A stretch of 64,000 nt of DNA, from contig OY970216.1 in NCBI GenBank assembly GCA_963713955.1, positions 8,075 to 72,074 of the forward strand, given 5' to 3'. The translations under genes and the position numbers were made by a program. This DNA is from an uncultured bacterium. Lineage in GTDB: Bacteria > Patescibacteriota > Minisyncoccia > UBA6257 > GWB1-50-10. This document shows, piece by piece, positions 37,331 through 51,420 of this stretch (position 1 is the first letter of the stretch; each line of letters begins with the position of its first letter). The notes under the pieces are model-generated. The model worked only from the letters and a program-made list of their open reading frames with translations, did not search any database and was not told where the DNA came from.

Positions 37331-37363
37331 GTTACTCTCGCTTTTTCGCTCCTGCGAGTCGCG

Positions 37364-38320
37364 CTATTGAAGCAATTTCCTCACAAAATTGCTTATATCA
37401 ATAAAGTTCTGATAAGCGCCTTTGACTTTCGCCAAAGACGAATTTACCAGATCTTTAATTGATACAACCTGAGAAGATCCTCCCGCCGCACCTGAGTCGG
37501 TGCTGGAACTTGTGGTCGCGGTGGATGTCGCTGACGACGAGTCGGATGTGGTGGTAGACGTCACCGTGGAAGAGGCTTCCAGAGCGGCAGTGCCCGTCGC
37601 AGAAGAAGTCGAGTCACTTCCCGGCGTGACTTCGGTGCTCGTGGAAGAAGTCGCCGTGAGGGGACTTACGTATCGTTCCAAGAATAAGTTGTAAGCCTCC
37701 CCATTCAAATCATTCGCTTCCTTTATGTCTTCCTTAGCCGCATCCAGCATGTCGCTGATCGTCTGCCGGTCCTTGGTCTTGAAGGTCAAAGAAGAAAGGT
37801 CCTTGGTTATATTCGTGAGCCTTTTTTGGGAAGTGTTTATTGCGGAAAATTCCTGCTGCACCAGAAGGAAATCCTGTACCTGACTGGTCAAGGGCAGATA
37901 GTCGGCATCCCTCCAGGTTTTAAAATCCTCGGCGACGGTTTTTATTCCGGCCAAATCAAGTGAAGAGGTACCGGTAATAAGTTGCCTCTCCGAATCAAAG
38001 TAAGAAAGATCTTGTTTCAACTGATCCGTTGAACTACTAACCCAGGCATCATAATCCGGATTCTTGGGAACTTGAAAAAGCTTAGATTCAAAATCCTTCA
38101 CCTCAGCGGTAGAGAGATCAAGAACTTGCTTGAAAGCGTTGATTCTCAAAGCTACGTCGTCCACGCTGCCTTCATCTTTGGCCGTGACGAGACTGTCCAG
38201 GGCGTCTTTCGCGTTCTGGAAAACCTGAGTCACCGGGCTCGCGTCGTCCGCCAATGCAACCCTCGAAAAGCCGAAACCCGCAACTATCAATATGAATGCC
38301 GATATTAAAACTTTTTTCAT
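37364..38320 (-). CDS. secreted protein with a Ser/Thr-rich C-terminus, encoded downstream of the ECF sigma and anti-sigma pair
   Basis: Signal peptide MKKVLISAFILIVAGFGFSRVALA; an S/T-rich low-complexity tail. Confidence 0.4.
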   Translation of the reverse strand: MKKVLISAFILIVAGFGFSRVALADDASPVTQVFQNAKDALDSLVTAKDEGSVDDVALRINAFKQVLDLSTAEVKDFESKLFQVPKNPDYDAWVSSSTDQLKQDLSYFDSERQLITGTSSLDLAGIKTVAEDFKTWRDADYLPLTSQVQDFLLVQQEFSAINTSQKRLTNITKDLSSLTFKTKDRQTISDMLDAAKEDIKEANDLNGEAYNLFLERYVSPLTATSSTSTEVTPGSDSTSSATGTAALEASSTVTSTTTSDSSSATSTATTSSSTDSGAAGGSSQVVSIKDLVNSSLAKVKGAYQNFIDISNFVRKLLQ

Positions 38321-38778
38321 TGCAAAACTTGGTTCAAGAGGTTATCTATCTTGGAACTTTGATCGGTCACCGTACTGCTCGTAATCTTTGCACTCTCCGA
38401 TTGCAATACATCCCCATTCAGATGGGGCGCCTTATTGCTCGTTATCGCGGAAATAGCATTGTTAATCGTCTGATTGACCTCGTTGTTATAGCTGACTTCC
38501 TGCAAGGTGATATTGATGTTCATGTCCGCCAGTTCTCTGTTCAGCGTCTCGGCACTTGCCAAAGGAAGAACGTTACCTCTCGTCGGTATGAAAACGTAAC
38601 CCAAAATCACGAGGAACACCAAGGCGAAAGAAGCCGCCCATGCGACAAGATAAGTCTTCACCGTGAAGTTCCTCTTCTTTTCAAAGGAAAAGATGAGGGC
38701 TTTGCTTCCCCGTAAAAAGGATTCATCGGGCTCTATGGTTCTAAACCTCTTTAGTTGTTTCTTTAAATCTTGACTCAT
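38317..38778 (-). CDS. putative anti-sigma factor (single-pass membrane protein)
   Basis: One central TM helix (TYLVAWAASFALVFLVILGYVFI). The gene overlaps the stop of the sigma factor gene. Confidence 0.4.
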   Translation of the reverse strand: MSQDLKKQLKRFRTIEPDESFLRGSKALIFSFEKKRNFTVKTYLVAWAASFALVFLVILGYVFIPTRGNVLPLASAETLNRELADMNINITLQEVSYNNEVNQTINNAISAITSNKAPHLNGDVLQSESAKITSSTVTDQSSKIDNLLNQVLQ

Positions 38779-39310
38779 GTTCGAGAACCGCCTTTTTGAG
38801 CTGCCGCAGGGCCCGGTGCTGAATCACCCGTACCGCACCCTCGCTCTTCCCGAGAGCGGCGCTTATTTCTTTGTTGGATAAATCTTCCACAAATTTCATA
38901 ATGAGGACATCTTGATAAGTTTGCTCCAACAAACCGATGCATTCCTTGACGACCTTGAGGTCGGAATCCGAATCCATTTTCTCTCCCAGAGCGGACTCGA
39001 CGGAAAAAACGTTTTCCGGGACCGTCTCAATATCGTAAGTTTGCTTCCGGGTTCTCCAATAATCTATGACCGAATTCCTCGCCGCCCGATAAAGGTAACT
39101 GGAAAAAGGTATTCCTCTCACGTCGAATGTTTCGATGTTTTTCCAAGCACTCAAAAACACTTCGTGAGTTAAATCCTCAGCTTCACCTCTCCTGCCGCCC
39201 AGTTTCAAAAAAACATACCGATATATTTTCGGCGCATACCGGCCATATATTTCCCCGAAAGCAGAAGTATCCCCTTTTTTTGCCTTCTTAAGGAGCTTAT
39301 CGTCCTCCAT
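38741..39310 (-). CDS. RNA polymerase sigma-70 family, ECF subfamily
   Basis: Region 2 (DLTHEVFLSAW) and region 4 (LSNKEISAALGKSEGAVRVIQHRALRQL). Confidence 0.8.
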   Translation of the reverse strand: MEDDKLLKKAKKGDTSAFGEIYGRYAPKIYRYVFLKLGGRRGEAEDLTHEVFLSAWKNIETFDVRGIPFSSYLYRAARNSVIDYWRTRKQTYDIETVPENVFSVESALGEKMDSDSDLKVVKECIGLLEQTYQDVLIMKFVEDLSNKEISAALGKSEGAVRVIQHRALRQLKKAVLEHESRFKETTKEV

Positions 39311-39458
39311 AGCTTAAAACGATGATTCCCATTTTTTGTTTCTCTTTTCCCTTCTCCAGGGTGTAACGCCCCGTAACAAACATCAAAAATATGGTAACAA
39401 AAACCACCATATTAGTAAACGAACCCACTAATCTCACATTACAAAGAGAGTTGGTAGA

Positions 39459-39475
39459 TGAGCGGGTAAGGGGAG
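39459..39475. other. attL-like 17-bp direct repeat (TGAGCGGGTAAGGGGAG), identical to the 3' end of tRNA-Gly at 54300-54316
   Basis: Exact 17-nt identity with 54300-54316; the flanks are partly similar (ATCAAAC versus TCGAACC). Confidence 0.55.
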
Positions 39476-39590
39476 ATCAAACGTCGCTCCAATGTTACGT
39501 CATCGGAGCTCCCACGAACCCAGCGGTTCGTGTGCTCCGCGACGGGAAAACTCCCGTTTTCCCGACCCCTTTCCCGTTCGACTCCCCGAG

Positions 39591-39919
39591 GTGAATATTG
39601 AGTATTTATACGGAGCAGTTAAGACCTATTTTACCCAAAATTTCTGATTTTGGATACCCCCGAGCCTAGTCAATCACCCCGTCAATCACGATTGACTACC
39701 CTCACCCCTCTTTCGTCCAGATTCCACCGGGCTTTCCTCGAAAACCTTGTCCCCGACAATACTCGCCTCCGCCCCTTACCGGTGCGTCGGCTCGTCTCCC
39801 GCAGAGGCCGCCCCCATGGGAAGGGTCGAAGGGAAGGAATGGGGGGCGGCCTCTGCTTCACGTCGCGCGTCAGAGATGCTCCCGAGGCCGGATTGGAAAA
39901 GGGAAGCAAAAAGGAGGAG
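39591..39919. repeat. left copy of the roughly 330-bp near-perfect inverted repeat (partner at 51477-51804)
   Basis: The reverse complement of 51477-51804 matches almost base for base (the identical 82-aa ORF artefact MDTPEPSQ... appears in both copies). It contains the nested motif TAGTCAATCACCCCGTCAATCACGATTGACTA. Confidence 0.8.
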
Positions 39920-39959
39920 CGGCTTATAAGGCAGTGCGTTTTTCGGTATCATTAAGGGA

Positions 39960-40793
39960 ATGCCCCGATACCGCAAGAGATTCGAGAGGAGCAAGGAGCC
40001 GCCCAAGAATTTTCGCATCCAGACGCGCGACTACGGCCTCCTCGCTGACATAGCTGGCTATGGGGTGCTCTCGACCGAGCAGATTTTCGCGCTTCACAAG
40101 GGAGGAGAAAGGAATCTTCGGCGGAGATTGGCCGCGCTCTATCACTTGGGATACATCGAGAGACCGAAAGCGCAAAAACTGCTTCCTCCCGGGAGCTTCA
40201 TCATCTATTCCCTCGGCAGAAAAGGAGCGGAGCTCCTTCACCGCGAGGAGTCCGTCGGGAAAAGACACCGCGAGGTTTCCTTCCCTCATCTTTCCCACGC
40301 TTTGATGATCTCGAGGTTCCGGTCCATCCTCTCCCTCGCCTTGAAGGGCGGAGACAAGAAGATCGAGAAATGGATGCAGGGCAGGGAGTTGTACGATACG
40401 CTCTCCAAGCGGGAGAAGACCGACCTCGTTCCGGATGCTTTCTTCACGGTCGAGAGCAAAGAATACAAGTGGCCCTTCTTCCTCGAAGCGGACATGGGTA
40501 CGATGACGCGGACGAAGATGCTCGAAAAATACCGGACGTACTGGCGGTGGTGGCGGGAGAGGCGGCACGAGCATACGCTCGGCATACAGAGATTCCGCGT
40601 CCTCACGATCGCTCCCTCGGAGACGAGAACGGAGAATCTCGTGAAAGCCGCGAAGGAGGCCGACGACCGGAGAACCGGCAGCGACATGTTTCTCTTTTTA
40701 TCGGAGACTGCATACTCCTTGAAGGAGCCGGAAGAAATACTGAAGTCCGTCTGGCTTTCCGCGAAGGGCGGAAGGCACGGAATACTCGAATAA
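39960..40793 (+). CDS. replication-relaxation family protein (Replic_Relax-like, N-terminal HTH)
   Basis: RDYGLLADIAGYGVLSTEQIFALH matches the N-terminal motif of plasmid replication-relaxation proteins; 277 aa. Confidence 0.5.
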   Translation: MPRYRKRFERSKEPPKNFRIQTRDYGLLADIAGYGVLSTEQIFALHKGGERNLRRRLAALYHLGYIERPKAQKLLPPGSFIIYSLGRKGAELLHREESVGKRHREVSFPHLSHALMISRFRSILSLALKGGDKKIEKWMQGRELYDTLSKREKTDLVPDAFFTVESKEYKWPFFLEADMGTMTRTKMLEKYRTYWRWWRERRHEHTLGIQRFRVLTIAPSETRTENLVKAAKEADDRRTGSDMFLFLSETAYSLKEPEEILKSVWLSAKGGRHGILE

Positions 40794-40817
40794 CCCGCTC
40801 CATCGGACGGGTGGCTT

Positions 40818-41010
40818 CGCAACGCATACTCGTCAAAAGACCTGCGGCTTTTGGCTCGAGACTGCGTTCGCCGCCCTTCCGCTCTCGCTCGTCTGCCTTC
40901 GTTCAATGCACTTTCTCTTAATCGCGCTTGGATTCCTCGCTTCCGTGAGCCGCAATCTCCGCAACGCATACTCGCTGAAAACCTCTGGTTTCCAGTTCGA
41001 GACTGCGTTC
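40818..41010. repeat. two copies of a roughly 52-bp imperfect palindromic unit (iteron/operator-like), 142 bp apart, in a 465-bp non-coding stretch
   Basis: CGCAACGCATACTCG-N23-CGAGACTGCGTTC at 40818-40869 and again at 40960-41010 (about 80 percent identical to each other; each unit is an inverted repeat). Confidence 0.5.
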
Positions 41011-41258
41011 AATTGCGTCTCCCGTCGCTTAAAGGAAAAACGCGGGAGGCTTTAGGCTCAACGCTAAGCCCCGCGCATTTTTCCTTTCGCGGGGAGCGCG
41101 ACGGAGCGCGCCCCCCGTGCGATTCTGCCCTTGCCCCACCACGCCCGTGCGCGGGCAAGAACGCTCCCCGAAACTAGCAAAGGTTGACATTCTTTGATGG
41201 GATTTTGTAACATCCTCCCGACATCGTCCTTTCGGGCGGTGTACGGTGAGGGGGACTC

Positions 41259-41516
41259 TCACGAGTCCCCCTTGGTCTTTTCCGAAGTTACATCATTATC
41301 TGAAACCATTATCAACCTTATAACCCAATCTGAAAGCCAGACGGCTCCGGCTTGCTTCCCAGACTCTAGAAGAAACTGGTTCTGGGACGCGACAAGCGTT
41401 TCTTGAGTAGCGTTGGCGGATGACGGAGGCGCCGCATCGGTGGGAGACGACGCAAGTGCGATCTGTATGATCCAGAGAAGCAGAAAACCGATTACAACTC
41501 TCAAAAATTTCCCCAT
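41259..41516 (-). CDS. small secreted or membrane protein (pilin-like?), hypothetical
   Basis: 85 aa; signal/TM MGKFLRVVIGFLLLWIIQIALA plus a second mildly hydrophobic stretch. Confidence 0.3.
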   Translation of the reverse strand: MGKFLRVVIGFLLLWIIQIALASSPTDAAPPSSANATQETLVASQNQFLLESGKQAGAVWLSDWVIRLIMVSDNDVTSEKTKGDS

Positions 41517-41836
41517 GACTTTGAAGAAAAATTGGGTTGCTCGACCTTTATATTGGTTTATTAAAGAACTCCCCAGAGATTAAAAATCCCCCTGTCGCTC
41601 TTCGGTGGTACTTCAACCTGCGACAGGGGGTGTTTTGGTGCTAATTTTTTCGCTCTGCGCCAGAAATTTCTATCGAATAAACACCCTTAAGTTATGGTAA
41701 TGATAACAAACCGGTGGTGAAAGTCAACTTCGCTCTCCTAAAAACTTTGAATGTAGTAAAATAACTCCATATCCCTCGTGCCTCTTTCTCGGCACGACAC
41801 AAGGTCGAGAGTTCTATAAAAACAGCATAAAAATAC

Positions 41837-42541
41837 ATGTGGACGTTCATCTTAATCGTCATCGTAGCCGTCGTCGCGTGGAATGTGTACAAGAAAAAGC
41901 AAGAAGAACAGCAGGAAAGCGGAGCCTACGAGACCGCCGACGTCCCTCCGGAGCGGAAACACTTGAAACGGATGTCTCTCTCGGAGAAGTGGCGCACGGT
42001 GAGTAGCTGGACGACCCTCGTTCCCGGAGCAGAGGGAAAGGGAGATGCGATCTTCAAAGCCGCGAAGGAAAGTATCGGGAAAGCCGCGGCGCCGAACCTC
42101 GTAGTCGAGGAGCGGCGGGTTAGCGTAAACGACCTCGCGAAGAGGTACGGCGAGCGGCGGCTGCTCGTGGTCGAGAACCGGAAAATCCTCGGCTACTACG
42201 CCTTCGTCTCCGTCATGGATTACGGCCATCAGCTTTCCGTCTCGTGGTATCTTATGTTTCAGGAAAACTGGTTCACGAAGTTCATGAAGACCGCGGTCAA
42301 GGGCGGCGTGATCGCCTTCCTCGCCAACTGGTTCGTCGTAATCATGGCGAGAATCTTCTACGCCGCGAGGCGGTGCACCATCCCCGAACTCATGAACATC
42401 TTCGACGCGGAGGAATTGACCGCCTACACGACGACCGTCCACCACGCCGTAACGGGGGCGGTCGAGGAGCTGATGGGCGGCATGAACATGGACTTCTCGA
42501 GGGTGGACACGAGGTCGCGGGGATTTTTAAATATCTCTTAG
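41837..42541 (+). CDS. membrane protein; its stop lies one base before the ATPase start, so it may be the membrane half of a split coupling protein
   Basis: N-terminal TM (MWTFILIVIVAVVAW) and an internal TM (VIAFLANWFVVIMARIF). It ends at 42541 and the ATPase starts at 42543. Confidence 0.4.
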   Translation: MWTFILIVIVAVVAWNVYKKKQEEQQESGAYETADVPPERKHLKRMSLSEKWRTVSSWTTLVPGAEGKGDAIFKAAKESIGKAAAPNLVVEERRVSVNDLAKRYGERRLLVVENRKILGYYAFVSVMDYGHQLSVSWYLMFQENWFTKFMKTAVKGGVIAFLANWFVVIMARIFYAARRCTIPELMNIFDAEELTAYTTTVHHAVTGAVEELMGGMNMDFSRVDTRSRGFLNIS

Positions 42542-42542
42542 C

Positions 42543-43925
42543 ATGGCGGAACCGCGCATCTTCCGCCGCGAACCCAAGAGCGACGAACTCGCGCTGGGTT
42601 ACGCGTGGGGCGAGGACCAAAAAGGCGACCTCTGGCAATTGAAGGGCGTCGCGCAGGAAGACCGCGCCACCCATTTTTACGTGATCGGCGCATCCGGCAC
42701 TGGCAAGACGAAGTTCTTGGAATACATGATCGGGCAGGACATAGCGAACGGGGCGGGATTCGGTGTGATTGATCCCCATGGGGACTTGATCGAAGCCGTG
42801 AAAGAGCGGCTCGCGCTTTCCGGAGACGATCTCGAAAGCCGCGTCGTCCTTATCGACCCCACAGACAAGAAGAAGGTCGTCTCCTTCAATCCCCTCGAAC
42901 GGCTGGACGGTGTCTCCCCGGCGGAGCAGTCCGCCGAGCTCACGCTCGCGTTTAAAAAGATTTGGGCGGACGCGTGGGGCGCACGGATGGAGGACATTCT
43001 CCGCAATTCTTTCATCGCCTTGATTGAGAACGACCTCACCCTCGCGGAACTGCCCCTCCTGTTCGCCGATGCCGGACTCCGCGCGAAGCTCACGGCGAAC
43101 CTGAAAAACGAGACCGCGAGGGATTTCTTCCACAAGTTCGATTCGTGGAGCAAGACCTTGAAGAACGAGTGGACGGAATCCACCTTGAACAAGGTGAACG
43201 CCTTTTTGTCCGACGAGCGGGTGCGGGACATGTTTGTCTCGCCCAAAAGTTCCTTCAATCTGCGGGACGCGATTGATGCGGGAAAGATATTGTTGGTGAA
43301 ACTGGATAAGGGAAGATTGAAGGGCGCAAGCGACCTTCTGGGTTCGCTCATCTTGACGAAGCTCCAGATGGCCGCCTTCTCCCGGACGGACGTGAGAGAA
43401 TCCGAGCGCAAGCCCTTTTACTTGTACATCGACGAGTTCCAGAACTTCGCGACCGAGAGCTTCACGGACGTCCTCACGGAGGCGAGGAAATACAAGCTGT
43501 CACTTACGCTCGTGAACCAGAACTTGGGGCAGCTTCCCTCCGAACTCCGGGCTTCCATCCTCACGAACTGCGGGATACAGGCGTGTTTCCGCCTTTCCCG
43601 CTTCGATGCGGAGCTTCTCGCCAAAGAAGCGTTCGGCGGGGTGGCCGACGCGACCCCGCAATGGGAAAAAAAATTCCAGTTGCTCCAAGCCCTCCCTAGG
43701 CAGGTGTGCCTCGTGAAGAACAAGGCGGCGGGCGGGATTGTTCTTATCCGCGTGCCGGACATAGGAGACGGGATGGACGAGCGGGAGCTTGAGGCCGCCT
43801 TGCGGGAAGCAGGGATCGGAGAGAAATACCTCCGCAAACGGGACGAGATTAACAAGGAGTATCACAGAAGGCACGAGGCCTTAACGAAAACCGACGAGCC
43901 GGACGGGTTCAAGGAGAAAAGATAG
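42543..43925 (+). CDS. P-loop ATPase, TraD/TrwB/VirD4-like or HerA/DUF87-like (candidate DNA translocase / coupling protein)
   Basis: Walker A VIGASGTGKT; DPHGD motif; Walker B YLYIDEFQNF. Paralog of 50122-51420. Confidence 0.55.
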   Translation: MAEPRIFRREPKSDELALGYAWGEDQKGDLWQLKGVAQEDRATHFYVIGASGTGKTKFLEYMIGQDIANGAGFGVIDPHGDLIEAVKERLALSGDDLESRVVLIDPTDKKKVVSFNPLERLDGVSPAEQSAELTLAFKKIWADAWGARMEDILRNSFIALIENDLTLAELPLLFADAGLRAKLTANLKNETARDFFHKFDSWSKTLKNEWTESTLNKVNAFLSDERVRDMFVSPKSSFNLRDAIDAGKILLVKLDKGRLKGASDLLGSLILTKLQMAAFSRTDVRESERKPFYLYIDEFQNFATESFTDVLTEARKYKLSLTLVNQNLGQLPSELRASILTNCGIQACFRLSRFDAELLAKEAFGGVADATPQWEKKFQLLQALPRQVCLVKNKAAGGIVLIRVPDIGDGMDERELEAALREAGIGEKYLRKRDEINKEYHRRHEALTKTDEPDGFKEKR

Positions 43926-43940
43926 TATTTTTCTACACTG

Positions 43941-43969
43941 TTTGACATTATTGCTATATTATGGTATCA
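43941..43969 (+). promoter_or_regulatory. sigma70-like promoter upstream of the DGR target gene
   Basis: TTGACA, a 17-nt spacer, then TATCAT. AAGGAGG lies 5 nt before the ATG at 44038. Confidence 0.4.
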
Positions 43970-44037
43970 TATCAACATTCCTGAAACTTAGGAACGCATC
44001 TAAAAAACTTCATATTCACTAACCAAGAAAGGAGGCA

Positions 44038-44919
44038 ATGACGATGAATACTACATCGATCATGCCAATGACAGAAGGTCAAGAAAAGCAACTGAGTCGC
44101 GTCGTAATGGAGGACGAACTCTTTACACCGAAACCCACAAACGACGAAGCTCAGTGTCTTCTAAAGCACGGCAATATACTGCAAACGGCAGTCCGAATTT
44201 CCCGCAAGGAGATATTCGTCAAGTATCTCTACGCAGATGAGGAAAAATCGTCCGACTACACCTATCCCAAGGAATACAAGCGAAAATCAATCCGAGAGCA
44301 AATCGATATTCTTCTGGAGTGCTTCCCCGGATTGAACGCAACATGGGCTTTAATGAAGGGAGAAGCTTGGTACGACAGCCTGAAGAACTTGCCGGATTGG
44401 ATTGAAGGCCCGCTCGTCTATGTATGGTGGGAAATGTTCGGCAACTACAACGCCGCAACGGAACAGGTGCTCTCCGCTCTGGGGAAGAAGTACCAAAACT
44501 TCGTGAACTACCGGAACGGCCAGCTTGGACCAGAATACCTGCAACAGTCGAAAAAGACGACCGGTCTCGAAGCAAAGATTAAGAAGGACCAGCCTGGCGA
44601 TCTCATCATCGTCCCGAGTCAAGCCGGATTGCGCTGGAGGGGAAAATCTGTCCGTCGCGGCAGAGTCCTCTATGATCAGAACGAATTCGGTTCGGGAAGC
44701 GTCGCCGAAGGATGCCGAGTGCTGACCCATAATCGGTTCGTCCAATGGGAGCAACTGCACGTTGATTGCGGAGGAGACGAATACGCTCCTGAGGCCGATC
44801 GGGTTTTCTCGCACGCTCCGCACCTCTACTTCCTCGATAGCGAGATCGGGTTCGTCACGTACTGGATTGACTATGCCCATGGGCACTTCGGTTCGGCTTC
44901 CTCCCTTCTCCCGCAGTAA
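44038..44919 (+). CDS. DGR target (variable) protein; the C-terminal approximately 43 aa are encoded by the variable repeat
   Basis: The 3' end of the ORF (44787-44917) is the VR homologous to the TR. The gene has a strong RBS and promoter and is followed by a hairpin terminator. No signal peptide is evident. Confidence 0.7.
   Translation: MTMNTTSIMPMTEGQEKQLSRVVMEDELFTPKPTNDEAQCLLKHGNILQTAVRISRKEIFVKYLYADEEKSSDYTYPKEYKRKSIREQIDILLECFPGLNATWALMKGEAWYDSLKNLPDWIEGPLVYVWWEMFGNYNAATEQVLSALGKKYQNFVNYRNGQLGPEYLQQSKKTTGLEAKIKKDQPGDLIIVPSQAGLRWRGKSVRRGRVLYDQNEFGSGSVAEGCRVLTHNRFVQWEQLHVDCGGDEYAPEADRVFSHAPHLYFLDSEIGFVTYWIDYAHGHFGSASSLLPQ
44787..44917 (+). repeat. DGR variable repeat (VR)
   Basis: 131-bp alignment with TR 45299-45430: 17 mismatches, all at positions where the TR has A. 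The final approximately 30 nt are identical and GC-rich (IMH-like), ending at the target stop codon. Confidence 0.85.
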
Positions 44920-44992
44920 TCGAACATTGCACCTCGGACACTTGAACCTTTTGATGTCTTGTCCTTCGTTCCTTTCGTCCGCGTTATTTTTG

Positions 44993-45034
44993 AGAGGTTA
45001 TCCACACCATTGTGGGTAACCTCTTTATTTTTTA
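44993..45034 (+). terminator. hairpin plus T-run downstream of the VR/target gene
   Basis: AGAGGTTATCCACA-CCAT-TGTGGGTAACCTCT (14-bp stem with 1 mismatch) then TTTATTTTTTA. The stem contains a perfect TTATCCACA. Confidence 0.55.
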
Positions 45035-45298
45035 TAATCATGAATGAGACTAGGTTCATGAATGGCCGTCCACGGATTGCCGTCACCGAACTCCCTCTTC
45101 AATGAAGAGAAAAACAACCGGAATCTTAGCGACCACGGTTTCTAAGAGCGCGTTGTATTGAGGAGATTACTGCTTGTCCCCGTCTAGCGCAGGTTCCCGT
45201 TCGGGATGCTGCCGAATAAAATTCAGGATTGAGAGGATATAAGCTCCCCTTGAGCGGTAAACCTCGATTTCCAGTGATACGGACGGATGGGGGCAATG

Positions 45299-45430
45299 AT
45301 CCTGAGGCCGATCAAGTTTTCTCGCACGCTCCGAACCTCAACTTCAACGATAGCAAGATCAAGTTCAACACGAACTGGATTGACAATGCCAATGAGAACT
45401 TCGGTTCGGCTTCCTCCCTTCTCCCGAAGT
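45299..45430 (+). repeat. DGR template repeat (TR)
   Basis: Adenine-rich AAC/AAT/AAG-containing copy of the VR; the ORF-track entries 45229-45483(+) and 45223-45474(-) merely overlap it and are not believed to be genes. Confidence 0.85.
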
Positions 45431-45446
45431 CGCTCCTCAAGGAGGC

Positions 45447-45477
45447 AGAATGCCCGCGATTTATACGCGGGCATTCT
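45447..45477. terminator. strong hairpin between the TR and the avd stop (bidirectional terminator or TR-RNA 3' structure)
   Basis: AGAATGCCCGCG-ATTTATA-CGCGGGCATTCT, a 12-bp perfect stem. Confidence 0.5.
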
Positions 45478-45479
45478 CC

Positions 45480-45830
45480 TTAATTTTCTTTAGCCGATCT
45501 TATCCATCCGCCTAACATCCGGCCGATTTCATCCACGGAAGATTCGAGCGCCACATACTTTTTATTGTCTATGGTTTTCACTTCCTTCATGAGACGAAGA
45601 AAAACGCGCAGGAGATTAAGCTTGACGCTCGTCTTGTCTAAAACCGGCACTTTCTCCGATTTATAGAGTTTGCTGGCCGTAAGTATCCCCTCAAGAATTT
45701 CGAGTGTTAGTTCTTCCGATCTCTGCCAGATGGCGTACCGGTCTTGCTTGGGAACAATTGTGCGATAACCATAAAATGTTTTGTATAAGTCATAAGTTTT
45801 CTTGAATATGGGTATGTCAAAATCATCCAT
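45480..45830 (-). CDS. avd: Avd-like accessory variability determinant (four-helix-bundle, 23S rRNA-IVS protein family)
   Basis: 116 aa; C-terminal EIGRMLGGWIRSAKEN closely resembles the Bordetella phage bAvd C-terminus EVGRILGSWIARVNRK; it lies between the TR and the RT. Confidence 0.7.
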   Translation of the reverse strand: MDDFDIPIFKKTYDLYKTFYGYRTIVPKQDRYAIWQRSEELTLEILEGILTASKLYKSEKVPVLDKTSVKLNLLRVFLRLMKEVKTIDNKKYVALESSVDEIGRMLGGWIRSAKEN

Positions 45831-45844
45831 AAGTTTTACGCCAC

Positions 45845-46870
45845 ATGAAAACCTGCAAAAACATTTTTGAAAAGATAATCTCGCCAGAAAATCTTTTTTT
45901 GGCTTGGGACGCGTTCAAAGGCGACAAGCGGAATAAACCTGACGTTCTCCGGTTTGAATGGAATCTGGAACAGAACATTTTCCGGTTGCACGGAGATTTG
46001 AAAGATAGAACCTACCAGCATGGCCCCTATGCGAGCTTTTACATCAACGATCCGAAGCAGCGCCACATTCATAAGGCGACGGTTCGAGACAGGATTCTGC
46101 ATCACGCGGTTTTCTCGGTTATAAATCCAGTCTTCGAGCCGACCTTCATTCCGACTTCTTTTTCTTGTCGCATCGGATACGGCACTCATAAGGGTGTCGA
46201 GACTCTGGAAGAGATGATAAGAAGGGTAAGTAGGAATAATACGGCTCCCTGTTTTGTCTTGAAATGCGATGTTCAGAAATTTTTTGCGAGCGTAAGCCAC
46301 GAAATTCTGCTCTCCATTCTGGAAAAGAGAATTAAAGACGATGATGCAATGTGGCTTATGGGAAGCATCGTTAAAAGCTATGAGAGCGTGTCCAGGCGAG
46401 GCATCCCCATAGGGAATTTGACCTCCCAGCTCTTTGCCAACGTCTACATGAACGAACTTGATCAGTTTATGAAGCACGTGTTGAAGGTAAAATATTACAT
46501 TCGCTACACCGACGACTTCGCCGTAGTCGCTGGAGATAAAAAATATTTAGAAGAACTCCTGCCGCTTATATCCAAATTTCTTGAAAATAAACTCGCTCTC
46601 AAATTACATCCTAATAAAACCATATTTTTATCAATATGTCAAGGCGTAGATTTCCTCGGATACGTGATTTTCCCAAAACATAGACTTATCCGGTTACAGA
46701 CAAAGCATCGGATGTTTAAGAAATTGGAAAAACTGATGGAAGAATACAAAGCTGGAAATATCACCAAATTAAACTTCGAGCAGTCTCTCCAGTCTTATCT
46801 GGGTGTCTTATCTCATGCGGATACCCACACGATACGGGAAGAACTGTTGAACAAGTTCTGGATTTCTTAA
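45845..46870 (+). CDS. DGR-type reverse transcriptase
   Basis: RT motifs including IPIGNLTSQLFANVY (the DGR-specific I/LGxxxSQ in place of the group II QGxxxSP) and YIRYTDDFAV (YxDD); 341 aa with no maturase or endonuclease domains. Confidence 0.9.
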   Translation: MKTCKNIFEKIISPENLFLAWDAFKGDKRNKPDVLRFEWNLEQNIFRLHGDLKDRTYQHGPYASFYINDPKQRHIHKATVRDRILHHAVFSVINPVFEPTFIPTSFSCRIGYGTHKGVETLEEMIRRVSRNNTAPCFVLKCDVQKFFASVSHEILLSILEKRIKDDDAMWLMGSIVKSYESVSRRGIPIGNLTSQLFANVYMNELDQFMKHVLKVKYYIRYTDDFAVVAGDKKYLEELLPLISKFLENKLALKLHPNKTIFLSICQGVDFLGYVIFPKHRLIRLQTKHRMFKKLEKLMEEYKAGNITKLNFEQSLQSYLGVLSHADTHTIREELLNKFWIS

Positions 46871-46895
46871 CCTACGCTCCGCCTTTTTACCGACA

Positions 46896-47261
46896 TTACG
46901 TCTCTTCCTTTTCACGCTTCGGCGTCTCGTGCGGTATCTTTGCCGTATTGATTCCGATCTTCGCCATTCTTCCGCCTCCCGAGAAGAGGAGGAAGACAAA
47001 AAGATATTGGAGAACGATGTCCCCGAGCTTCCCGATGCTTTGGGAGACGACCGGAGGCACGCCGACCGATGTTTCTCCGAGATGGACGTTATTCACCGAA
47101 ACCGTGCTTTGCGCCGCGTCTCCTTTCCCTTCAAGAATGGAGGGGATATTGTTTCCGTGGAACACGCTGAACCCGTACCAGACGCCAAACCCGATTATCG
47201 CCGCTCCTCCTATAATGAGGATTAAGCTTAGGATGACGTAGTATTTCTCCTTGTGCTTCAT
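46896..47261 (-). CDS. small membrane protein, hypothetical
   Basis: N-terminal TM (YYVILSLILIIGGAAIIGFGVWYGF) and a C-terminal hydrophobic segment. Confidence 0.35.
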   Translation of the reverse strand: MKHKEKYYVILSLILIIGGAAIIGFGVWYGFSVFHGNNIPSILEGKGDAAQSTVSVNNVHLGETSVGVPPVVSQSIGKLGDIVLQYLFVFLLFSGGGRMAKIGINTAKIPHETPKREKEET

Positions 47262-47377
47262 TGAATTTTGATTATCCCGGCGCTATACAGGCCGAATTCG
47301 GCGAGCCAGAGCGCGGCGGATACCAGCACCCAGAACCACCAACGCAGATAGAGTTTGACTTTGGGTTTTTCGTTCAT
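47258..47377 (-). CDS. 39-aa single-TM micro-protein (not in the ORF track; ATGA-coupled to the downstream gene)
   Basis: MNEKPKVKLYLRWWFWVLVSAALWLAEFGLYSAGIIKIQ. Confidence 0.25.
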   Translation of the reverse strand: MNEKPKVKLYLRWWFWVLVSAALWLAEFGLYSAGIIKIQ

Positions 47378-47393
47378 GATATTTGTTTCAACG

Positions 47394-47546
47394 TCAGCTT
47401 AACGGCTGGTGCAGCGCAAGACGGATCGCACTAACGATAGCCGCAGCCACCAGCCAGCCGACAGCGAGCGCGGAAACGACCTTGAGAACTATTTTAACAA
47501 CCAACCAAAATTTCTTCATGGGTCCGTTTTTGGTTTTTCCGTCCAT
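47394..47546 (-). CDS. 50-aa single-TM micro-protein (not in the ORF track)
   Basis: MDGKTKNGPMKKFWLVVKIVLKVVSALAVGWLVAAAIVSAIRLALHQPLS. Confidence 0.25.
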   Translation of the reverse strand: MDGKTKNGPMKKFWLVVKIVLKVVSALAVGWLVAAAIVSAIRLALHQPLS

Positions 47547-47550
47547 AAGT

Positions 47551-47766
47551 TTATTTCGCATTGTTCAACGACGCAGAACTTAGAATGAAGTTCTGGATGA
47601 TGGGGCATCGCTCCGCTTCGTCCGCCGGAACGGTGAACGTGGCGTCCGGCTGGTATTCCTTGAAAGCGCAGTCCACGAGCGAAGGCGACGGCCCCGTTTT
47701 CCAGAGGAGGGTTACGGCGACCAGCAATACTACGATTATTCCCACTAACCAGATGAGAGATTTCAT
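47551..47766 (-). CDS. 71-aa small membrane/secreted protein
   Basis: MKSLIWLVGIIVVLLVAVTLLW TM or signal; overlaps the stop of the upstream gene. Confidence 0.3.
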   Translation of the reverse strand: MKSLIWLVGIIVVLLVAVTLLWKTGPSPSLVDCAFKEYQPDATFTVPADEAERCPIIQNFILSSASLNNAK

Positions 47767-48734
47767 TTCGTGAGGTTAATTGGAGCCATGATGATGGTAT
47801 CGCTCGCCCCGCCTTCATCGCCCATGGGGAGCAAGAAAGTTCCGCCACCCCTGTAGAGTTTGCCGTAGTCTCCCTGCTTGTACGAAATGATGGTGTAGCT
47901 CGGCTCGTTCATTATCATCGCGCCGTTTTCGTTCGTGCAGGTTGTGTTAATGGACAATATGCTGTCCGGCGTGAAGTAGGCGGTATTCGTGCTCGTGCTC
48001 TTGAGCGCGACCCAGCCGTTGTTCGCCACGCTGAAAGAGCATCCACTCTTATTCGCGCTCATCGTCACCTTGATCCTTGCGGGTCCGAAGACGTTCAGTC
48101 CTCCCCAGTTGGAGTTTATGATCCCATCGGACTCCAGCACTTCGGCCGAGACGCTCACGTCCTTCGCCGTTGACGATGCCGCAAAGGCGCCGGTCTTCGG
48201 AAGATCGGCACCCCCCGCCGCGTTCACCGCCGCGTCTTCCTCGCTCTTCACATACAGGGCGAGCTTGAACGTTGCGTCCGTGAACTCCTTGACGGCGGGG
48301 CAGCTGTTTAACTTTATGTTTTCGTCAGGCGTGAGGCCGAAGGACGAATCGTTCAAGTATTTGTTCATGTCCGAACCCAAGGCGTCCTTGAGACACTGCT
48401 GCACCGACGGAGGAGCGCCCGTCGAGAGAGTGAGCGCCGTGGTGCTCGTGTTCACGCAGCCGCTACTGCTCATAAGCTTTTGGGTCGAACTGGTTACAAT
48501 CCCTTCGCTGTATGCGGCATTGAAGGCATCGCCCATCTTGGACTGGAGGCAGGCCACGAACTCACTGCTCGTCGAGTAGAGGTCGATAAACGCTTGGAAC
48601 GGGTTCGGCTTCACGACTTGGGGGAGCTTGGCGGCGGCGAATTGCTGGACGGGGCGGTACAGCAAGAAGGCGGTTGCTCCCGCCGCAACAATTACGACGA
48701 TGACTACGCCTAAAATTATTTTGTTTTTGTTCAT
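47763..48734 (-). CDS. N-terminally anchored extracellular Ser/Thr-rich protein, hypothetical
   Basis: TM IILGVVIVVIVAAGATAFLLY, then a 300-aa Cys-containing beta-rich domain. Confidence 0.4.
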   Translation of the reverse strand: MNKNKIILGVVIVVIVAAGATAFLLYRPVQQFAAAKLPQVVKPNPFQAFIDLYSTSSEFVACLQSKMGDAFNAAYSEGIVTSSTQKLMSSSGCVNTSTTALTLSTGAPPSVQQCLKDALGSDMNKYLNDSSFGLTPDENIKLNSCPAVKEFTDATFKLALYVKSEEDAAVNAAGGADLPKTGAFAASSTAKDVSVSAEVLESDGIINSNWGGLNVFGPARIKVTMSANKSGCSFSVANNGWVALKSTSTNTAYFTPDSILSINTTCTNENGAMIMNEPSYTIISYKQGDYGKLYRGGGTFLLPMGDEGGASDTIIMAPINLTK

Positions 48735-48845
48735 AAATTTTTAAAGAAAAAAGCTAACCGGCGGGTTCGACGTTTAGCTTTGTGCAGAAACACAAAGCCC
48801 CCAGCCAGTGATCCCTTGCGAGACCCATACCAGTTTCCCGATATG

Positions 48846-48895
48846 ACGATTGCGCGTGCTCTGACTAGGAGCTTTCTATGCGCAATCGTTTTTTA
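48846..48895 (+). terminator. plus-strand hairpin plus T6 in a 380-bp ORF-free gap between two minus-strand genes (candidate sRNA 3' end)
   Basis: ACGATTGCGC-N24-GCGCAATCGT followed by TTTTTT. Confidence 0.3.
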
Positions 48896-49112
48896 AACCC
48901 TGCCGCAGGCTTTCCTACGGGTTAGGTCTCATATGAAATTGTATGGAGTCAATAGTAACACAACGGCAGGAAAAGGCAAGATTAAAAACGCCCGATTTTA
49001 TATGAAATATCAGGCGGTTGTTACCATAGTCGGCTTGCTCCTTGTATATAAGTTTGCTATACTTTAGTTAACGTAGCAACGAAATGAACAAGCTTTACGA
49101 TATAGTTCAGTA

Positions 49113-49880
49113 CTAGTTGGCTGGTATCGCCAGCTCTACGGCGAACGTGTCTTTTGCTATTCGCTCCGTACCCTTAAATGGCTCTACCAAGTCGTCAAAG
49201 TAATGTAAATTTTCCGGCCGAAGAGTCTCGGATAGATAAGCTTCAGCTCGCGTTTTATCGGCGATGTAATCTTTGGCTAGCTCCCTGTTTTCAGGTTTTT
49301 CTAAAAATCCTTTAAACTGCTTCGGGGTTAACGTACCTCTGTAATAACCCCATTTCCTCGTTAGACAATGTACGAGGTTGTTTTCATTTATAAGCAACTC
49401 GCGGAGTATTCTTTTCTTTAAATCCTTCTCGCCTATCTTGTTTATATCTATCTCATCGATATATGCGATAGCATCCCTGAAAGAAAGCAAGGCATTATTT
49501 ATTTGAGCCAATCTTTTGGAGCCGTGTTTAATACCCTTGTCATGGGCGGCTCCATCGCGGACATTCTCGTATTCATAAATCTCCAAGTGAGATATTCCTA
49601 AAGTGCGGGCCATCTGCGATTTGGATATGCTTCTCTCTTTCTCCCAGTTCTTTGCGTTCTCCTCTAAAATCTGTTTTCTTAATGCCTCGATTTCCTCTCC
49701 GGTCATCTGGAGCAAAAGGTAATTCGCCGCTCCCACGAGTGCTATGATCAGAGCGAGAAACGCCATGAGATTTAAAGCGTCTCCCGGCGAGAAAACTTTA
49801 GGCCATATAAAAGCAGCGAATCCCATTAAGACAACGGCAGCGAGAAATAACCCGATAATCCACCAAAATGTAACTTTCAT
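49113..49880 (-). CDS. membrane protein with a cytoplasmic helical domain, hypothetical
   Basis: Two N-terminal TM helices; ...SQMARTLGISHLEIYEYE is an HTH-like segment. Confidence 0.4.
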   Translation of the reverse strand: MKVTFWWIIGLFLAAVVLMGFAAFIWPKVFSPGDALNLMAFLALIIALVGAANYLLLQMTGEEIEALRKQILEENAKNWEKERSISKSQMARTLGISHLEIYEYENVRDGAAHDKGIKHGSKRLAQINNALLSFRDAIAYIDEIDINKIGEKDLKKRILRELLINENNLVHCLTRKWGYYRGTLTPKQFKGFLEKPENRELAKDYIADKTRAEAYLSETLRPENLHYFDDLVEPFKGTERIAKDTFAVELAIPAN

Positions 49881-50121
49881 ATATAAGCTTATTTTTTAAC
49901 AAACCCCTTAGGCTCTTATTATACCACCCCCGTTTGACACCAGCCCACCAAAAATGGTATCCACTATCAGCCCATTACCTCCCCCGCCCGAGCCAATCGG
50001 TGCGGAGGAAGGCGGAGCGCAGGAGAGCTTGCCTTCCGCCTGCCGCAAGATAATCGCTCCCGGTTGTCTTGCGGAGGAATGAAGCTCGTATCATAAAAGA
50101 TATACAATAAAGGGACGCAAC

Positions 50122-51420
50122 GTGCGCCCCTTTTTGTATTTTCTGATGGACGACATCCTCCCCATCGGCAGGACGACCTCCCATTCGAGCGGGCTTGTCT
50201 TCGGAATCCGGACGAGAGACCGGCGACACCACATGTATGTCGTGGGGCAGACCGGCACGGGAAAATCGACTTTGCTCAAGAATATGGCGATAACGGACAT
50301 CCGGGGCGGGCGCGGCTGCGCCGTGATAGACCCGCACGGGGAACTCGTCGAGGACATCCTTAACTTCATTCCTTCTAAGAGGGCGAACGAAGTCGTGTAT
50401 TTCAATCCCTCGGATGTCGAGAATCCCATCGGCTTGAACATTCTCGAAGCGAGGGACGAGGAGGAAAAGCAACTGGTCGCCTCGTCCTTGATCTCGGTAT
50501 TCAAACACCTATGGAAGGGGTTCTGGGGGCCTCGGCTGGAACACGTCTTCCATAACGCCATATTAGCTCTTATGGATACGCCGGGGAGCACCCTCCTCGG
50601 CGTTTATCGTATGCTCGCGGACGACGATTACCGCCGCCTCGTCGTTTCCCACGCGAAAGACCCCATAGTTAGGTTGTTCTGGGAAAAGGACTTCGACGAA
50701 TATCCGCCTCAATTCCGCAAAGAGGTCGCCTCTCCTATCCAGAACAAGATCGGGCAATTGCTCACGAACACGCCCTTGCGGAATATCGTGGGACAGACGA
50801 CGAGCACGATTGATCTCAAATACATCATGGATAACCGGAGAGTCCTTCTCGTGAACCTCGCGAAAGGCAGAATCGGAGAAGACAAGGCGAACCTTCTCGG
50901 GTCCGTCCTCGTTACCAAGCTCTATTTGGCCGCTTTGGAGAGGCAGGCGATCCCGGAGGAGGAACGCAAGGACTTCTACCTCTACGTTGACGAGTTCCAG
51001 AACTTCTCGACGGACGTGTTTCCTTCGATACTCTCGGAGGCGAGGAAATACCGGCTGAACCTCATCTTGGCTCACCAGTATCTCCACCAGTTGACCGACG
51101 AGGTGCGGCACGCCGTCTTCGGAAACGTGGGCACTTTGGTCGCTTTCCGCGTGGGGAGCATAGACGCGGAGGAACTCGCAAGAGAGTTCCTGCCCTCGTT
51201 CGGGAGGAGCGACCTCGAATGCGAGGACAACTACCACACTTATATTAAATTGATGATCGACGGCAAGCGTTCGCTTCCCTTCTCGGCGGAAACGCTCCCG
51301 CCCCTCTGCCTTATGGGCGACGAGGCGAAGAAAGACATTCTGATTCAGGTTTCACGGGAGCGTTTCGCTTCAAAAAGATGCGAGATCGAATCCAAAATCG
51401 AAAAATGGATTGGCAGGTGA
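50122..51420 (+). CDS. P-loop ATPase, paralog of 42543-43925 (TraD/VirD4- or HerA-like)
   Basis: VVGQTGTGKST, DPHGE, YLYVDEFQNF; roughly 45 percent identical to the first ATPase. Probably a GTG start. Confidence 0.55.
   Translation: MRPFLYFLMDDILPIGRTTSHSSGLVFGIRTRDRRHHMYVVGQTGTGKSTLLKNMAITDIRGGRGCAVIDPHGELVEDILNFIPSKRANEVVYFNPSDVENPIGLNILEARDEEEKQLVASSLISVFKHLWKGFWGPRLEHVFHNAILALMDTPGSTLLGVYRMLADDDYRRLVVSHAKDPIVRLFWEKDFDEYPPQFRKEVASPIQNKIGQLLTNTPLRNIVGQTTSTIDLKYIMDNRRVLLVNLAKGRIGEDKANLLGSVLVTKLYLAALERQAIPEEERKDFYLYVDEFQNFSTDVFPSILSEARKYRLNLILAHQYLHQLTDEVRHAVFGNVGTLVAFRVGSIDAEELAREFLPSFGRSDLECEDNYHTYIKLMIDGKRSLPFSAETLPPLCLMGDEAKKDILIQVSRERFASKRCEIESKIEKWIGR

Follow-up and report, generated by a model that had tools for sequence, protein, structure and literature searches.

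The locus described here, a diversity-generating retroelement (DGR), lies within a 64,000-nt stretch of DNA (the window, that is, the whole stretch analysed) and consists of a target gene whose 3′-end forms a variable copy (VR), a template copy (TR) of the same sequence, an oppositely oriented avd gene and a reverse transcriptase (RT) gene, with hairpins, an inverted repeat and a set of predicted RNA helices in between (Table 1). The open reading frames of target, Avd and RT are all intact. Upstream of the target gene, a sigma-70-like promoter match agrees with 11 of 12 consensus positions and is to be read as a consensus match only, total matches in the region equalling shuffle expectation.

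Table 1 Features of the locus, in window positions
Feature	Position	Strand	Description
Sigma-70-like promoter match	43942-43970	+	TTGACA-17-TATCAT, upstream of target gene
DGR target gene	44038-44919	+	293 aa; N-terminal helices, then predicted C-type-lectin-like C-terminal domain
VR	44787-44917	+	Codons 250-293 of target, 3′-end of gene; from repeat comparison and second allele in assembly L048
IMH-like VR 3′-end	44886-44917	+	Adenine-free GC-rich block 44886-44913, then CAGT
Two-tier inverted repeat	44935-44981	+	Outer stem 44935-44939/44977-44981, inner stem 44944-44947/44968-44971; conserved
Intrinsic terminator of target gene	44992-45035	+	15-pair stem and T-run
TATAAT, −10-like box	45034-45039	+	Upstream of DGR RNA; TATA(T/A)(A/T) conserved in alignment; putative promoter
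Structured RNA domain 5′ of TR	45046-45299	+	~250 nt, conserved, covarying; RNAalifold
RNA helix P1	45046-45095	+	
RNA helix P2	45116-45154	+	
RNA helix P3	45174-45185 with 45285-45296	+	
RNA helix P4	45189-45212	+	
RNA helix P5	45226-45272	+	
Spacer-like strand	45158-45185	+	45158-45171 with TR 3′ flank (LR helix); 2-nt GC linker; 45174-45185 with TR 5′ flank (P3)
TR	45300-45430	+	131 nt, 34 adenines; same sequence in second assembly
TR 3′ flank	45428-45440	+	AGTCGCTCCTCAA; 3′ strand of LR helix
12-bp hairpin and T-rich tail	45447-45487	+	Terminator-like; putative DGR RNA end
avd	45480-45830	−	116 aa; start codon 14 nt from RT start codon
DGR reverse transcriptase	45845-46870	+	341 aa; RVT_1; GIPIGNLTSQ and YTDD motifs

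VR and TR form a direct repeat of 131 nt and 87% identity, the longest in the window. A preliminary description of this DNA had held that the two copies differ only at template adenines, and a base-by-base comparison bears this out: TR has A at 17 of 17 mismatches, the bases that stand in its place in VR (G, C or T) agree exactly with those listed earlier, and the pairwise alignment proposed as a check contains no mismatch at any of the 97 non-A TR positions. For 17 randomly placed mismatches all to fall on the adenines of TR (34 of 131 nt), p is ~2.5e-12. The TR frame given at that time (N-L-N-F-N-D-S-K-I-K-F-N-T-N-W-I-D-N-A-N-E-N-F) is likewise correct, as is the statement that the altered codons are mostly AAY (eight AAY, two AAG, one CAA and one GAG). 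VR positions that vary against TR or between alleles span 44801-44885. The 27-mer TTCGGTTCGGCTTCCTCCCTTCTCCCG has two sites only, in VR and in TR, and searches of the window for repeats and for this 27-mer found no second VR.

The IMH of a DGR lies at the VR 3′-end, is distinct from the IMH* of the TR, and sets the 3′ limit of mutagenesis. At the 17th mismatch, 44914 C in VR faces 45427 A in TR (context CCCG[C/A]AGT), after which the copies share AGT and then diverge; every one of the 21 related VR/TR pairs has the same C/A contrast. Judged by this sequence comparison, it is a fixed VR/TR difference and not a product of mutagenesis, so that the earlier count of 17 stands for position but is to be read as 16 mutagenic changes plus one fixed difference of IMH/IMH* type. 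The VR 3′ block was rightly described as GC-rich and invariant; since it is free of adenines, however, its invariance alone says nothing about an IMH-like role. A hairpin with a 14-bp stem about 75 nt past VR, also reported earlier, does exist (at 44992-45025, where 15 pairs, one of them G-T, form a stem that begins 75 nt past VR and is followed by TATTTTTTAT), but its role is that of target-gene terminator. An intrinsic terminator is conserved behind all target genes, with hairpin and T-run at this position in 17 of 17 aligned loci. The two-tier inverted repeat closer to VR, in which pairing reaches 76.7% of cells (slid controls, at most 48.8%) and 8 of the 11 pairs show compensatory changes, is a better candidate for the counterpart of the IMH-adjacent cruciform of the Bordetella phage.

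DGR reverse transcriptases carry [I/L/V]GxxxSQ in motif 4 together with YxDD, and the accessory proteins of DGRs are either Avd or of the HRDC/MSL/CH1 types; DGR-clade RT motifs and an accessory protein are both found at the window locus. Avd matches PF22296 (bAvd, 2.6e-17) and narrowly passes the NF033474 DivGenRetAVD equivalog (score 80.7 bits, cut-off 80), while a PDB sequence search with it returned no match. The best PDB match of the RT is the Bordetella phage bRT (8ub7, E = 2.9e-46, full length), compared to E = 1.4e-23 for group II intron RTs; the two have the motif IGxLTSQ in common, and the named ones among its >7000 homologs are all CPR. The window RT has no (GA)n tract. Eight loci among the relatives have a (GA)n tract or are broken at that site, and seven of these have their RT out of frame; a phase-variable RT arising from this intragenic tract is a possibility, in relatives only, and a literature search turned up no relevant account of SSR phase variation in a DGR RT.

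A search for related loci, built from nine target sequences, recovered ~22 loci with the same layout and with 10–22 adenine and 0–3 non-adenine VR/TR mismatches. The VR/TR pair with its mutagenesis-type adenine bias is thus confirmed, as the preliminary description had proposed: Avd and a DGR-type RT adjoin it, a second VR allele differs only at TR-adenine positions, and the structure recurs in an independent assembly as well as in these relatives, so the repeats are no assembly artefact. An ordinary partial gene duplication or artefact with coincidental adenine bias, for which the bare existence of a repeat speaks and no more, has next to no probability given that bias, the adjoining RT and Avd, and a structure shared with the second assembly and >20 related loci.

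That second assembly (L048), from the same strain, is 99.93% identical to the window across 16,982 aligned nt, with 12 differences. Of these, 11 fall in VR at TR-adenine positions, and TR is identical, so that the element was recently active and is, again, no artefact; outside VR there is a single SNP in ~16.9 kb, a contrast that requires homing after the populations split. Two further loci (L036 and L040) behave similarly: leaving the RT tract aside, they differ by 11 substitutions or indels, every one of them in VR, so that natural VR variants with an unchanged TR, a mark of ongoing homing, are found in both pairs. The TRs of the window and of another locus (L001) differ at ~28 positions, and in both loci VR and TR nevertheless agree wherever TR has a base other than A. 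Taken as sequence evidence, these patterns indicate that the DGR is recently active. A fossil element, recording past mutagenic homing and now dead in this genome, is very unlikely: the window holds a single genome sequence, a 1-nt deletion in the VR allele of L048 puts its target out of frame, and RTs of relatives are out of frame as noted above, but the window ORFs are intact, VR and TR have diverged at none of the 97 non-adenine positions, and the one SNP outside VR stands against 11 TR-adenine differences inside. Instead of marking a true allele, the L048 deletion may itself stem from an error in the consensus of a mixed population. We are therefore highly confident in reading 44038-46870 as a complete, recently active CPR-type DGR (target-VR, TR, avd on the opposite strand, RT) on a mobile island.

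The VR of a DGR lies in a protein-coding gene, usually at the C-terminal end, in a C-type-lectin or Ig fold. The model of the window target has a C-type-lectin-like fold whose matches include Mtd (1yu0) and Treponema TvpA (2y3c), and the i, i+2 spacing of the variable residues (255, 262, 264, 266, 269, 271, 273, 275, 279 and 281-283) suggests that they line one face of a predicted β-hairpin. Most likely, the target is a variable binding protein. No Pfam domain was found in its 293 aa and, as it has neither signal peptide nor membrane segment, a role as surface adhesin is unsupported. A PDB sequence search with the target profile and a protein search for the family in IMG/VR both returned no match; its named homologs are all CPR.

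The DGR is located on an integrated mobile island of ~14.7 kb, in which a PHROGs search found no phage structural proteins, leaving a prophage setting unsupported. It belongs, as an ordinary member, to the known class of CPR/Patescibacteria-type DGRs, which are frequent among ultra-small CPR bacteria and of which Paul et al. 2017 is reportedly the first survey. In Wu et al. 2018 (PMC5758913), architecture B3, TR-(avd)-RT, accounts for 90% of CPR DGRs, and the order found here, TR (+), avd (−), RT (+), is that of B3. Roux et al. 2021 (PMC8144416) assign to Patescibacteria a DGR clade 2 with CPR-restricted RT, cellular setting and a target without TM or known domain; the named RT and target homologs here are all CPR and the target has no recognised domain.

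Between the target terminator and TR lies a conserved RNA domain of ~250 nt, with a DGR RNA that would start near 45046, judging by the −10-like box. In the domain, 92.3% of cells are paired compared to at most 52% in slid controls, and 46 of 72 pairs show compensatory changes compared to at most 24; its G-U pairs identify the plus strand. A covariance model (R1) reaches 136.9 bits over 45155-45299 and gives one match per DGR locus across 29 loci, each ending at the TR start, such that the domain occurs only beside TRs. No Rfam family matched it, even at E up to 1; a literature search found no description of such a domain in CPR DGRs, and the portions of Wu et al. 2018 and Roux et al. 2021 available to us do not mention it. 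An IMG/VR scan with a 16–17-nt RNA motif gave 58 loci, two with a DGR (L100 and L106) and the others chance matches. Pairs that RNAalifold placed within TR (A5 columns 301-309, 334-359 and 392-427) were discarded, as none covaries.

Two predicted helices pair the flanks of TR with a single upstream strand: P3 ends 3 nt before TR, and the LR helix starts 1 nt after A45427. Both show compensatory changes (L039, L043, L046 and L107), and in L107, whose TR is unrelated, both LR strands are rewritten. The LR helix is predicted in all loci, with energies from −12 to −19 kcal/mol; its outer pairs are only 69–77% paired in the MAFFT alignment. Downstream of TR, all loci have a terminator-like hairpin, differing in sequence but constant in position, ~17 nt past the LR strand, so that a 3′ spacer would not fit. 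This hairpin lies where other DGRs have predicted Avd-binding stem-loops.

Tentatively, and with doubt slightly outweighing confidence, we propose that B3 CPR DGRs use a circularly permuted template RNA in which the 5′ domain of ~250 nt supplies a strand pairing both TR flanks. With equal reserve, that strand may be the counterpart of the primer and stop duplexes formed by the Bordetella phage spacer. In the mechanism proposed for the window DGR, a separate non-coding RNA of ~445 nt (~45046-45490) would be transcribed, comprising the 5′ fold, the 131-nt TR and the terminator-like hairpin, and RT-Avd would copy TR into cDNA while misincorporating opposite the 34 template adenines. By analogy with the phage particle, the strand at 45158-45185 would pair both TR flanks and loop TR out; cDNA synthesis would begin beside A45427, a putative initiation region likened to phage TR G117, with the priming nucleotide predicted at U45171 to C45173; and P3 would halt synthesis at the TR 5′ edge, with the cDNA 3′ end predicted at ~45297-45300. 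The cDNA would then replace VR from 44787 to ~44913 at the target 3′-end, recoding up to 21 codons (~2e18 possible peptides) on the modelled β-hairpin of the C-type-lectin-like domain. The scaffold would thus stand 5′ of TR here and 3′ (Sp) in the phage. Alternatively, the DGR is real but the 5′ domain is a leader, regulatory element or sRNA, priming proceeding from 3′ sequence (hairpin 45447-45477 onward) as in Bordetella. We judge this unlikely, even though a conserved hairpin follows TR and published predictions place Avd-binding stem-loops and stop duplexes within 100 nt 3′ and 40 nt 5′ of TR in 207 of 278 DGRs, CPR included: only ~50 nt separate TR from the avd stop codon and in every locus they end in a hairpin with T-rich tail, both flank-pairing helices abut TR and covary, the strand order LR-2 nt-P3 copies Sp47-56-2 nt-Sp59-70, and the domain occurs only beside TRs.

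While the window DGR is a further well-documented, active example of a very large known class, what is new is the covarying 5′ RNA domain, an unexpected place for a conserved fold in a DGR template RNA. Together with the two flank-pairing helices, it provides a testable model of template positioning in the commonest CPR DGR layout, where, if the permuted reading is true, the RT-Avd scaffold lies 5′ and not 3′ of the template. R1 also marks TRs directly, without VR/TR detection. If true, the permuted model would extend the RNP mechanism of the Bordetella phage to DGRs of ‘microbial dark matter’ and would aid the design of compact engineered DGR cassettes, the RNA being a self-contained transcription unit.

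Compared with the CPR B3 DGRs of Wu et al. 2018 (PMC5758913), the window element is alike in gene order, orientation and host group. As in these and in clade 2 of Roux et al., its target is short and without recognisable domain or membrane segment, its VR likewise C-terminal with AAY-rich codons, and its RT likewise part of a clade with thousands of CPR members. There is no essential difference from these DGRs; the target family here (~290 aa, CPR, predicted C-type-lectin-like fold) has no Pfam model, and its VR class may correspond to a group that Wu et al. list as ‘unknown VR’.

The Bordetella phage BPP-1 DGR is ordered mtd-VR, avd, TR, Sp, brt and forms an RT-Avd-RNA particle (Handa et al., bioRxiv 10.1101/2023.10.23.563531). 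The RTs are homologous over their full length, and both systems have Avd, adenine-specific mutagenesis, a GC-rich VR 3′-end with an IMH/IMH*-type difference and an inverted repeat 3′ of VR. In BPP-1, one RNA strand forms two adjacent duplexes and TR loops out between them, an arrangement that covariation predicts here with identical strand order. In contrast to BPP-1, avd is encoded on the other strand and its mRNA can therefore not be the source of the RNA segment upstream; the scaffold strand is found ~130 nt 5′ of TR within a ~250-nt domain rather than in a 140-nt spacer 3′ of TR; the RNA ends at a terminator ~60 nt past TR; and the setting is a cellular, integrated island rather than a phage tail-fibre locus. 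For the phage spacer, Weinberg et al. 2017 describe the RT-10 motif only, and whereas RNAs of that type carry TR followed by a 3′ spacer, the pairing strand of the window DGR lies 5′ of TR, giving a DGR RNA that appears circularly permuted relative to that of BPP-1.

A base-by-base comparison of the longest direct repeat in the window, two 131-nt copies sharing 87% identity, identified 17 mismatches between the variable repeat (VR) and the template repeat (TR), at each of which the TR carries A and the VR carries G, C or T (p = 2.5e-12 for 17 randomly placed mismatches all falling on A, given 34 A among the 131 TR bases). These agree in identity and order with the mismatches listed in the preliminary description, whose TR reading frame was also correct, as was its interpretation of the repeats as the VR/TR pair of a diversity-generating retroelement (DGR): they lie within a complete DGR cassette spanning 44038-46870. 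The 27-mer at the 3′ end of the repeat occurs at only two sites, the VR and TR copies, and no second VR was found anywhere in the window. Among the accompanying genes, avd scores 80.7 bits against the NCBIfam equivalog DivGenRetAVD (cut-off 80), and the best solved structure for the full-length reverse transcriptase (RT) is the Bordetella phage bRT (8ub7, E = 2.9e-46), with group II intron and retron RTs far behind. The avd and RT starts are divergent and separated by just 14 nt (0-60 nt in relatives), so that the promoter of each gene must sit within the other; the sole promoter-like match near these starts lies within avd.

Coordinates of cassette, RNA and island features in the window, and of (GA)n sites in related loci (L numbers)
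Feature	Position	Strand	Basis or remark
Genomic island	39591-54303		Replic_Relax protein, two type-IV-coupling-protein (T4CP)-like ATPases, large serine recombinase, several unknown ORFs, LOOT RNA
Target ORF	44038-44919	+	293 aa; VR is its last 44 codons
VR	44787-44917		
Two-tier inverted repeat	44935-44981		nearer VR than terminator hairpin
Terminator hairpin	44992-45025		15-pair stem, T-run 3′ of stem
TATAAT	45034-45039	+	conserved, upstream of 5′ domain
P1	45046-45095	+	RNAalifold/alignment
P2	45116-45154	+	RNAalifold/alignment
R1 match	45155-45299		136.9 bits
P3	45174-45185 with 45285-45296	+	RNAalifold/alignment; 3′ strand ends 3 nt short of TR
P4	45189-45212	+	RNAalifold/alignment
P5	45226-45272	+	RNAalifold/alignment
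TR	45300-45430		
12-bp hairpin and T-rich tail	45447-45487	+	downstream of TR in every locus
avd	45480-45830	-	116 aa; 50 nt beyond TR; PF22296 bAvd, 2.6e-17
Promoter-like match	45748-45777	+	
RT	45845-46870	+	341 aa; GIPIGNLTSQ and YTDD
LOOT RNA	48810-48928	-	Rfam RF03000, 83 bits; ~1.9 kb downstream of RT, in island
(GA)n tract/break sites	L036 4487-4508; L040 3473-3492; L026 7400-7425; L033 6646-6691		
(GA)n tract/break sites, further	L034 7443-7482; L047 6003-6038; L032; L024 ~3330	L032: -	

Related loci were gathered by scanning collections of genomes, metagenomes and viruses and by looking up single homologs. RT homologs exceed 7000 at E <1e-40, the named ones all from CPR, and a shared layout was found in ~22 loci (target (+), ~350-500 nt spacer, TR (+), ~50 nt, avd (-), RT (+)), whose VR/TR pairs carry 10-22 adenine mismatches and 0-3 others. 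The window DGR, with TR, avd on the opposite strand and RT in that order, has the core order TR-(avd)-RT designated B3 by Wu et al. 2018 (PMC5758913), and Roux et al. 2021 (PMC8144416) describe a Patescibacteria-restricted, cell-encoded DGR clade with targets typically lacking a transmembrane or known domain. The element thus adds an unexceptional new member to a known, very large CPR DGR class. In its closest relative (L001, uncultured MAG MFD03726.bin.1.17; target 86% identical), a single TR (8393-8523) diversifies two tandem paralogous targets (6001-6879 and 7100-8005) of just 36% mutual identity, with 18 and 22 adenine-only mismatches, and T4CP or relaxase genes are absent nearby. In two further loci, L024 and L100, the TR-avd-RT module is flipped relative to the target, placing TR and VR on opposite strands; despite this inversion, L024 retains a VR/TR pair with 17 adenine-only mismatches.

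Evidence for activity comes from comparisons between closely and distantly related copies. The homologous protein P0059, in the 90% cluster of the target, belongs to an independent ENA assembly of the same strain (L048, contig_143291 of ERZ25039477) that is colinear with window positions 36038-53019 (16,982 nt, 99.93% identity). Only 12 differences separate the two: one SNP at 39243 and 11 within 44801-44885, each at a TR-A position, while the TRs are identical. Likewise, all differences between loci L036 and L040 (99.66% identity over 3.8 kb) fall within the VR or an RT dinucleotide tract, and the TRs of the window and L001 differ at ~28 positions, with each VR matching its own TR at all non-adenine positions. 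All three comparisons require homing after lineage divergence and exclude an assembly artefact; the window DGR has demonstrably been active recently. At a site where the TR reads AA, one of the 11 VR differences in L048 (VR allele at 8750-8879) is the loss of a single nucleotide, which frameshifts the target and gives the 326-aa product P0059 in the +1 frame; either the DGR truly introduced this indel, or long-read assembly of a mixed population yielded an erroneous consensus.

Although all 17 differences fall at TR adenines, the last of them (44914 C / 45427 A, within CCCG(C/A)AGT) does not behave as a mutagenic one: VR C faces TR A in all 21 VR/TR pairs compared, where random adenine mutagenesis would yield a mixture. 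This pattern argues for a fixed difference, either of the kind seen between IMH and IMH* (the 3′-end elements of VR and TR) or kept by selection for a conserved C-terminal Gln, and the position would show where information transfer ends on the 3′ side. The adjoining 3′ block, proposed as IMH-like, is indeed invariant, but this is uninformative because 44886-44913 contains no adenine and cannot vary. Furthermore, the 14-bp-stem hairpin reported 75 nt downstream of the VR is present, yet by its T-run, kept with it downstream of every target gene, it is the target's intrinsic terminator. In the Bordetella phage DGR, a GC-rich inverted repeat comes after the IMH; by analogy, its better counterpart here would be the two-tier inverted repeat nearer the VR, which is conserved with compensatory changes in 8 of 11 pairs (76.7% paired vs ≤48.8% in slid controls).

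Pfam, NCBIfam and PHROG searches gave no match for the target, and its 57 homologs derive, where named, from Kaiserbacteria, Paceibacterota, Nealsonbacteria and Parcubacteria. An alignment of 46 homologs yielded a confident AlphaFold2 model (pLDDT 89.8, pTM 0.86). Within the set of altered codons (255, 262, 264, 266, 269, 271, 273, 275, 279, 281, 282 and 283), 262/264/266 and 269/271/273/275 occupy every other residue along a predicted beta-hairpin with strands E259-266 and E269-276, a spacing at which their side chains would share one face and the intervening L, F, I, F and W would point inward. Substitution of all template adenines would reach about 2e18 peptides. No signal peptide or membrane segment is predicted, and a surface location is therefore unsupported. 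Target homologs also occur in chromosomal settings where the 5-6 kb of retrieved sequence holds no TR, Avd or RT (L003-L007, L017, L018 and L029; for example L006 6001-6882, flanked by a ComEC-like gene and nrdG/nrdD); these are either remote targets or non-diversified family members.

The cassette lies within a ~14.7-kb island with housekeeping genes on either side and an adjoining tRNA-Gly. Four other loci also have T4CP-like genes upstream of the target, and in others the DGR sits amid chromosomal genes; two IMG/VR contigs carry the family, and no phage structural genes were found in the island. Nested inverted repeats of 328 nt (97%; 39591-39918 with 51477-51804) and 115 nt (100%; 51793-51907 with 54189-54303) are also present in L048. 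Read on the minus strand, 51477-51907 joins the right end of the island to its left end and therefore corresponds, in inverted orientation, to the junction that a circular form would have, and since the 115-nt pair brackets the serine recombinase gene, the segment between may be invertible. A tRNA-like 3′ fragment (GTTCGACTCCCC), inverted relative to tRNA-Gly, lies immediately left of 39591. LOOT, an sRNA of unknown function according to Rfam, recurs in L024 (5949-6067 (+), 75.5 bits, 190 nt past the target gene) and was not found in the other 13 DGR loci scanned.

In related loci, the RT gene contains a (GA)n microsatellite (n = 10-23) immediately upstream of the IGNLTSQ motif; the window RT has no such tract at 46380-46420. 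The RT is in frame in L036 (n = 11) and frameshifted in L040 (n = 10), 99.66% identical elsewhere; of the 8 loci in which this site holds a tract or break, 7 have the RT out of frame. In these relatives only, the pattern resembles ON/OFF switching of the DGR RT by strand slippage; a literature search found no description of such switching, and a tract that determines whether the RT is in frame may be new.

The 380 nt between target and TR align well across loci whose targets share only 33-60% identity, and RNAalifold returned a multi-helix structure for this interval. Pairs of the 5′ domain were 92.3% standard, with changes on both sides in 46 of 72 and a covariation score of 0.519, compared to at most 52%, 24 pairs and 0.156 in slid controls; none of 500 shuffles attained the observed values. 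Frequent G-U pairs assign the RNA to the plus strand. As TATAAT precedes the domain and a hairpin with T-rich tail closes the TR side, the predicted RNA would be a self-contained unit of ~445 nt ending ahead of avd. An additional helix, LR, pairs 45158-45171 (TTGAGGAGATTACT), just 5′ of P3, with the 13 nt at 45428-45440 (AGTCGCTCCTCAA), which start 1 nt past A45427. LR is predicted in every locus (-12 to -19 kcal/mol). Its pairs show compensatory changes in L039, L043 and L046, and in a Moranbacteria DGR with unrelated TR and target (L107) both of its strands have changed sequence (GAGAGTTAATTT with AAATTACCTC). R1, a covariance model of the LR 5′ strand and P3-P5, matched each of 29 DGR loci exactly once (50-141 bits; 15 loci outside the training set) and gave only 21-25 bits on pattern-selected control loci; no Rfam 15 family matched, even with E values of up to 1 admitted. 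The P2 loop accepts insertions (~85 nt in L011, ~1000-1090; ~20 nt in L022 and L042, A4 columns 285-375), which suggests a peripheral element. A weaker R1 match in L013 (2211-2365, 49.7 bits) lies 150 nt past a target homolog; tblastn detected no Avd or RT on this 4.3-kb contig, whose cassette may have degenerated or been rearranged.

The hairpin 3′ of the TR matches in position the Avd-binding stem-loops predicted for other DGRs in a published survey, whose coverage on the 5′ side of the TR was limited to 40 nt and so could not include the 5′ domain. This putative 5′ scaffold RNA may be new, and its model merits experimental follow-up. In the Bordetella phage particle (bioRxiv 10.1101/2023.10.23.563531), a single Sp strand downstream of the TR forms two adjacent duplexes: the template:primer duplex (Sp47-56 with TR117-129; primer A56, first template base G117) and, 2 nt on, a "stop" duplex (Sp59-70 with avd369-379, upstream of the TR) that ends cDNA synthesis, with the TR looped out between them. 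Similarly, one strand in the window carries, 5′ to 3′, LR (pairing with the TR 3′ flank), 2 nt (GC) and P3 (pairing with the TR 5′ flank). From covariation and this analogy, the 5′ domain would be bound by RT-Avd, and cDNA synthesis would start at or next to A45427, which would explain why that base never reaches the VR, and halt at P3, which would explain the sharp 5′ edge of VR/TR identity at 45300. Because the strand order is that of the phage and the pairing strand, unlike Sp, lies upstream of the TR, we infer that the window DGR RNA is circularly permuted relative to its phage counterpart.
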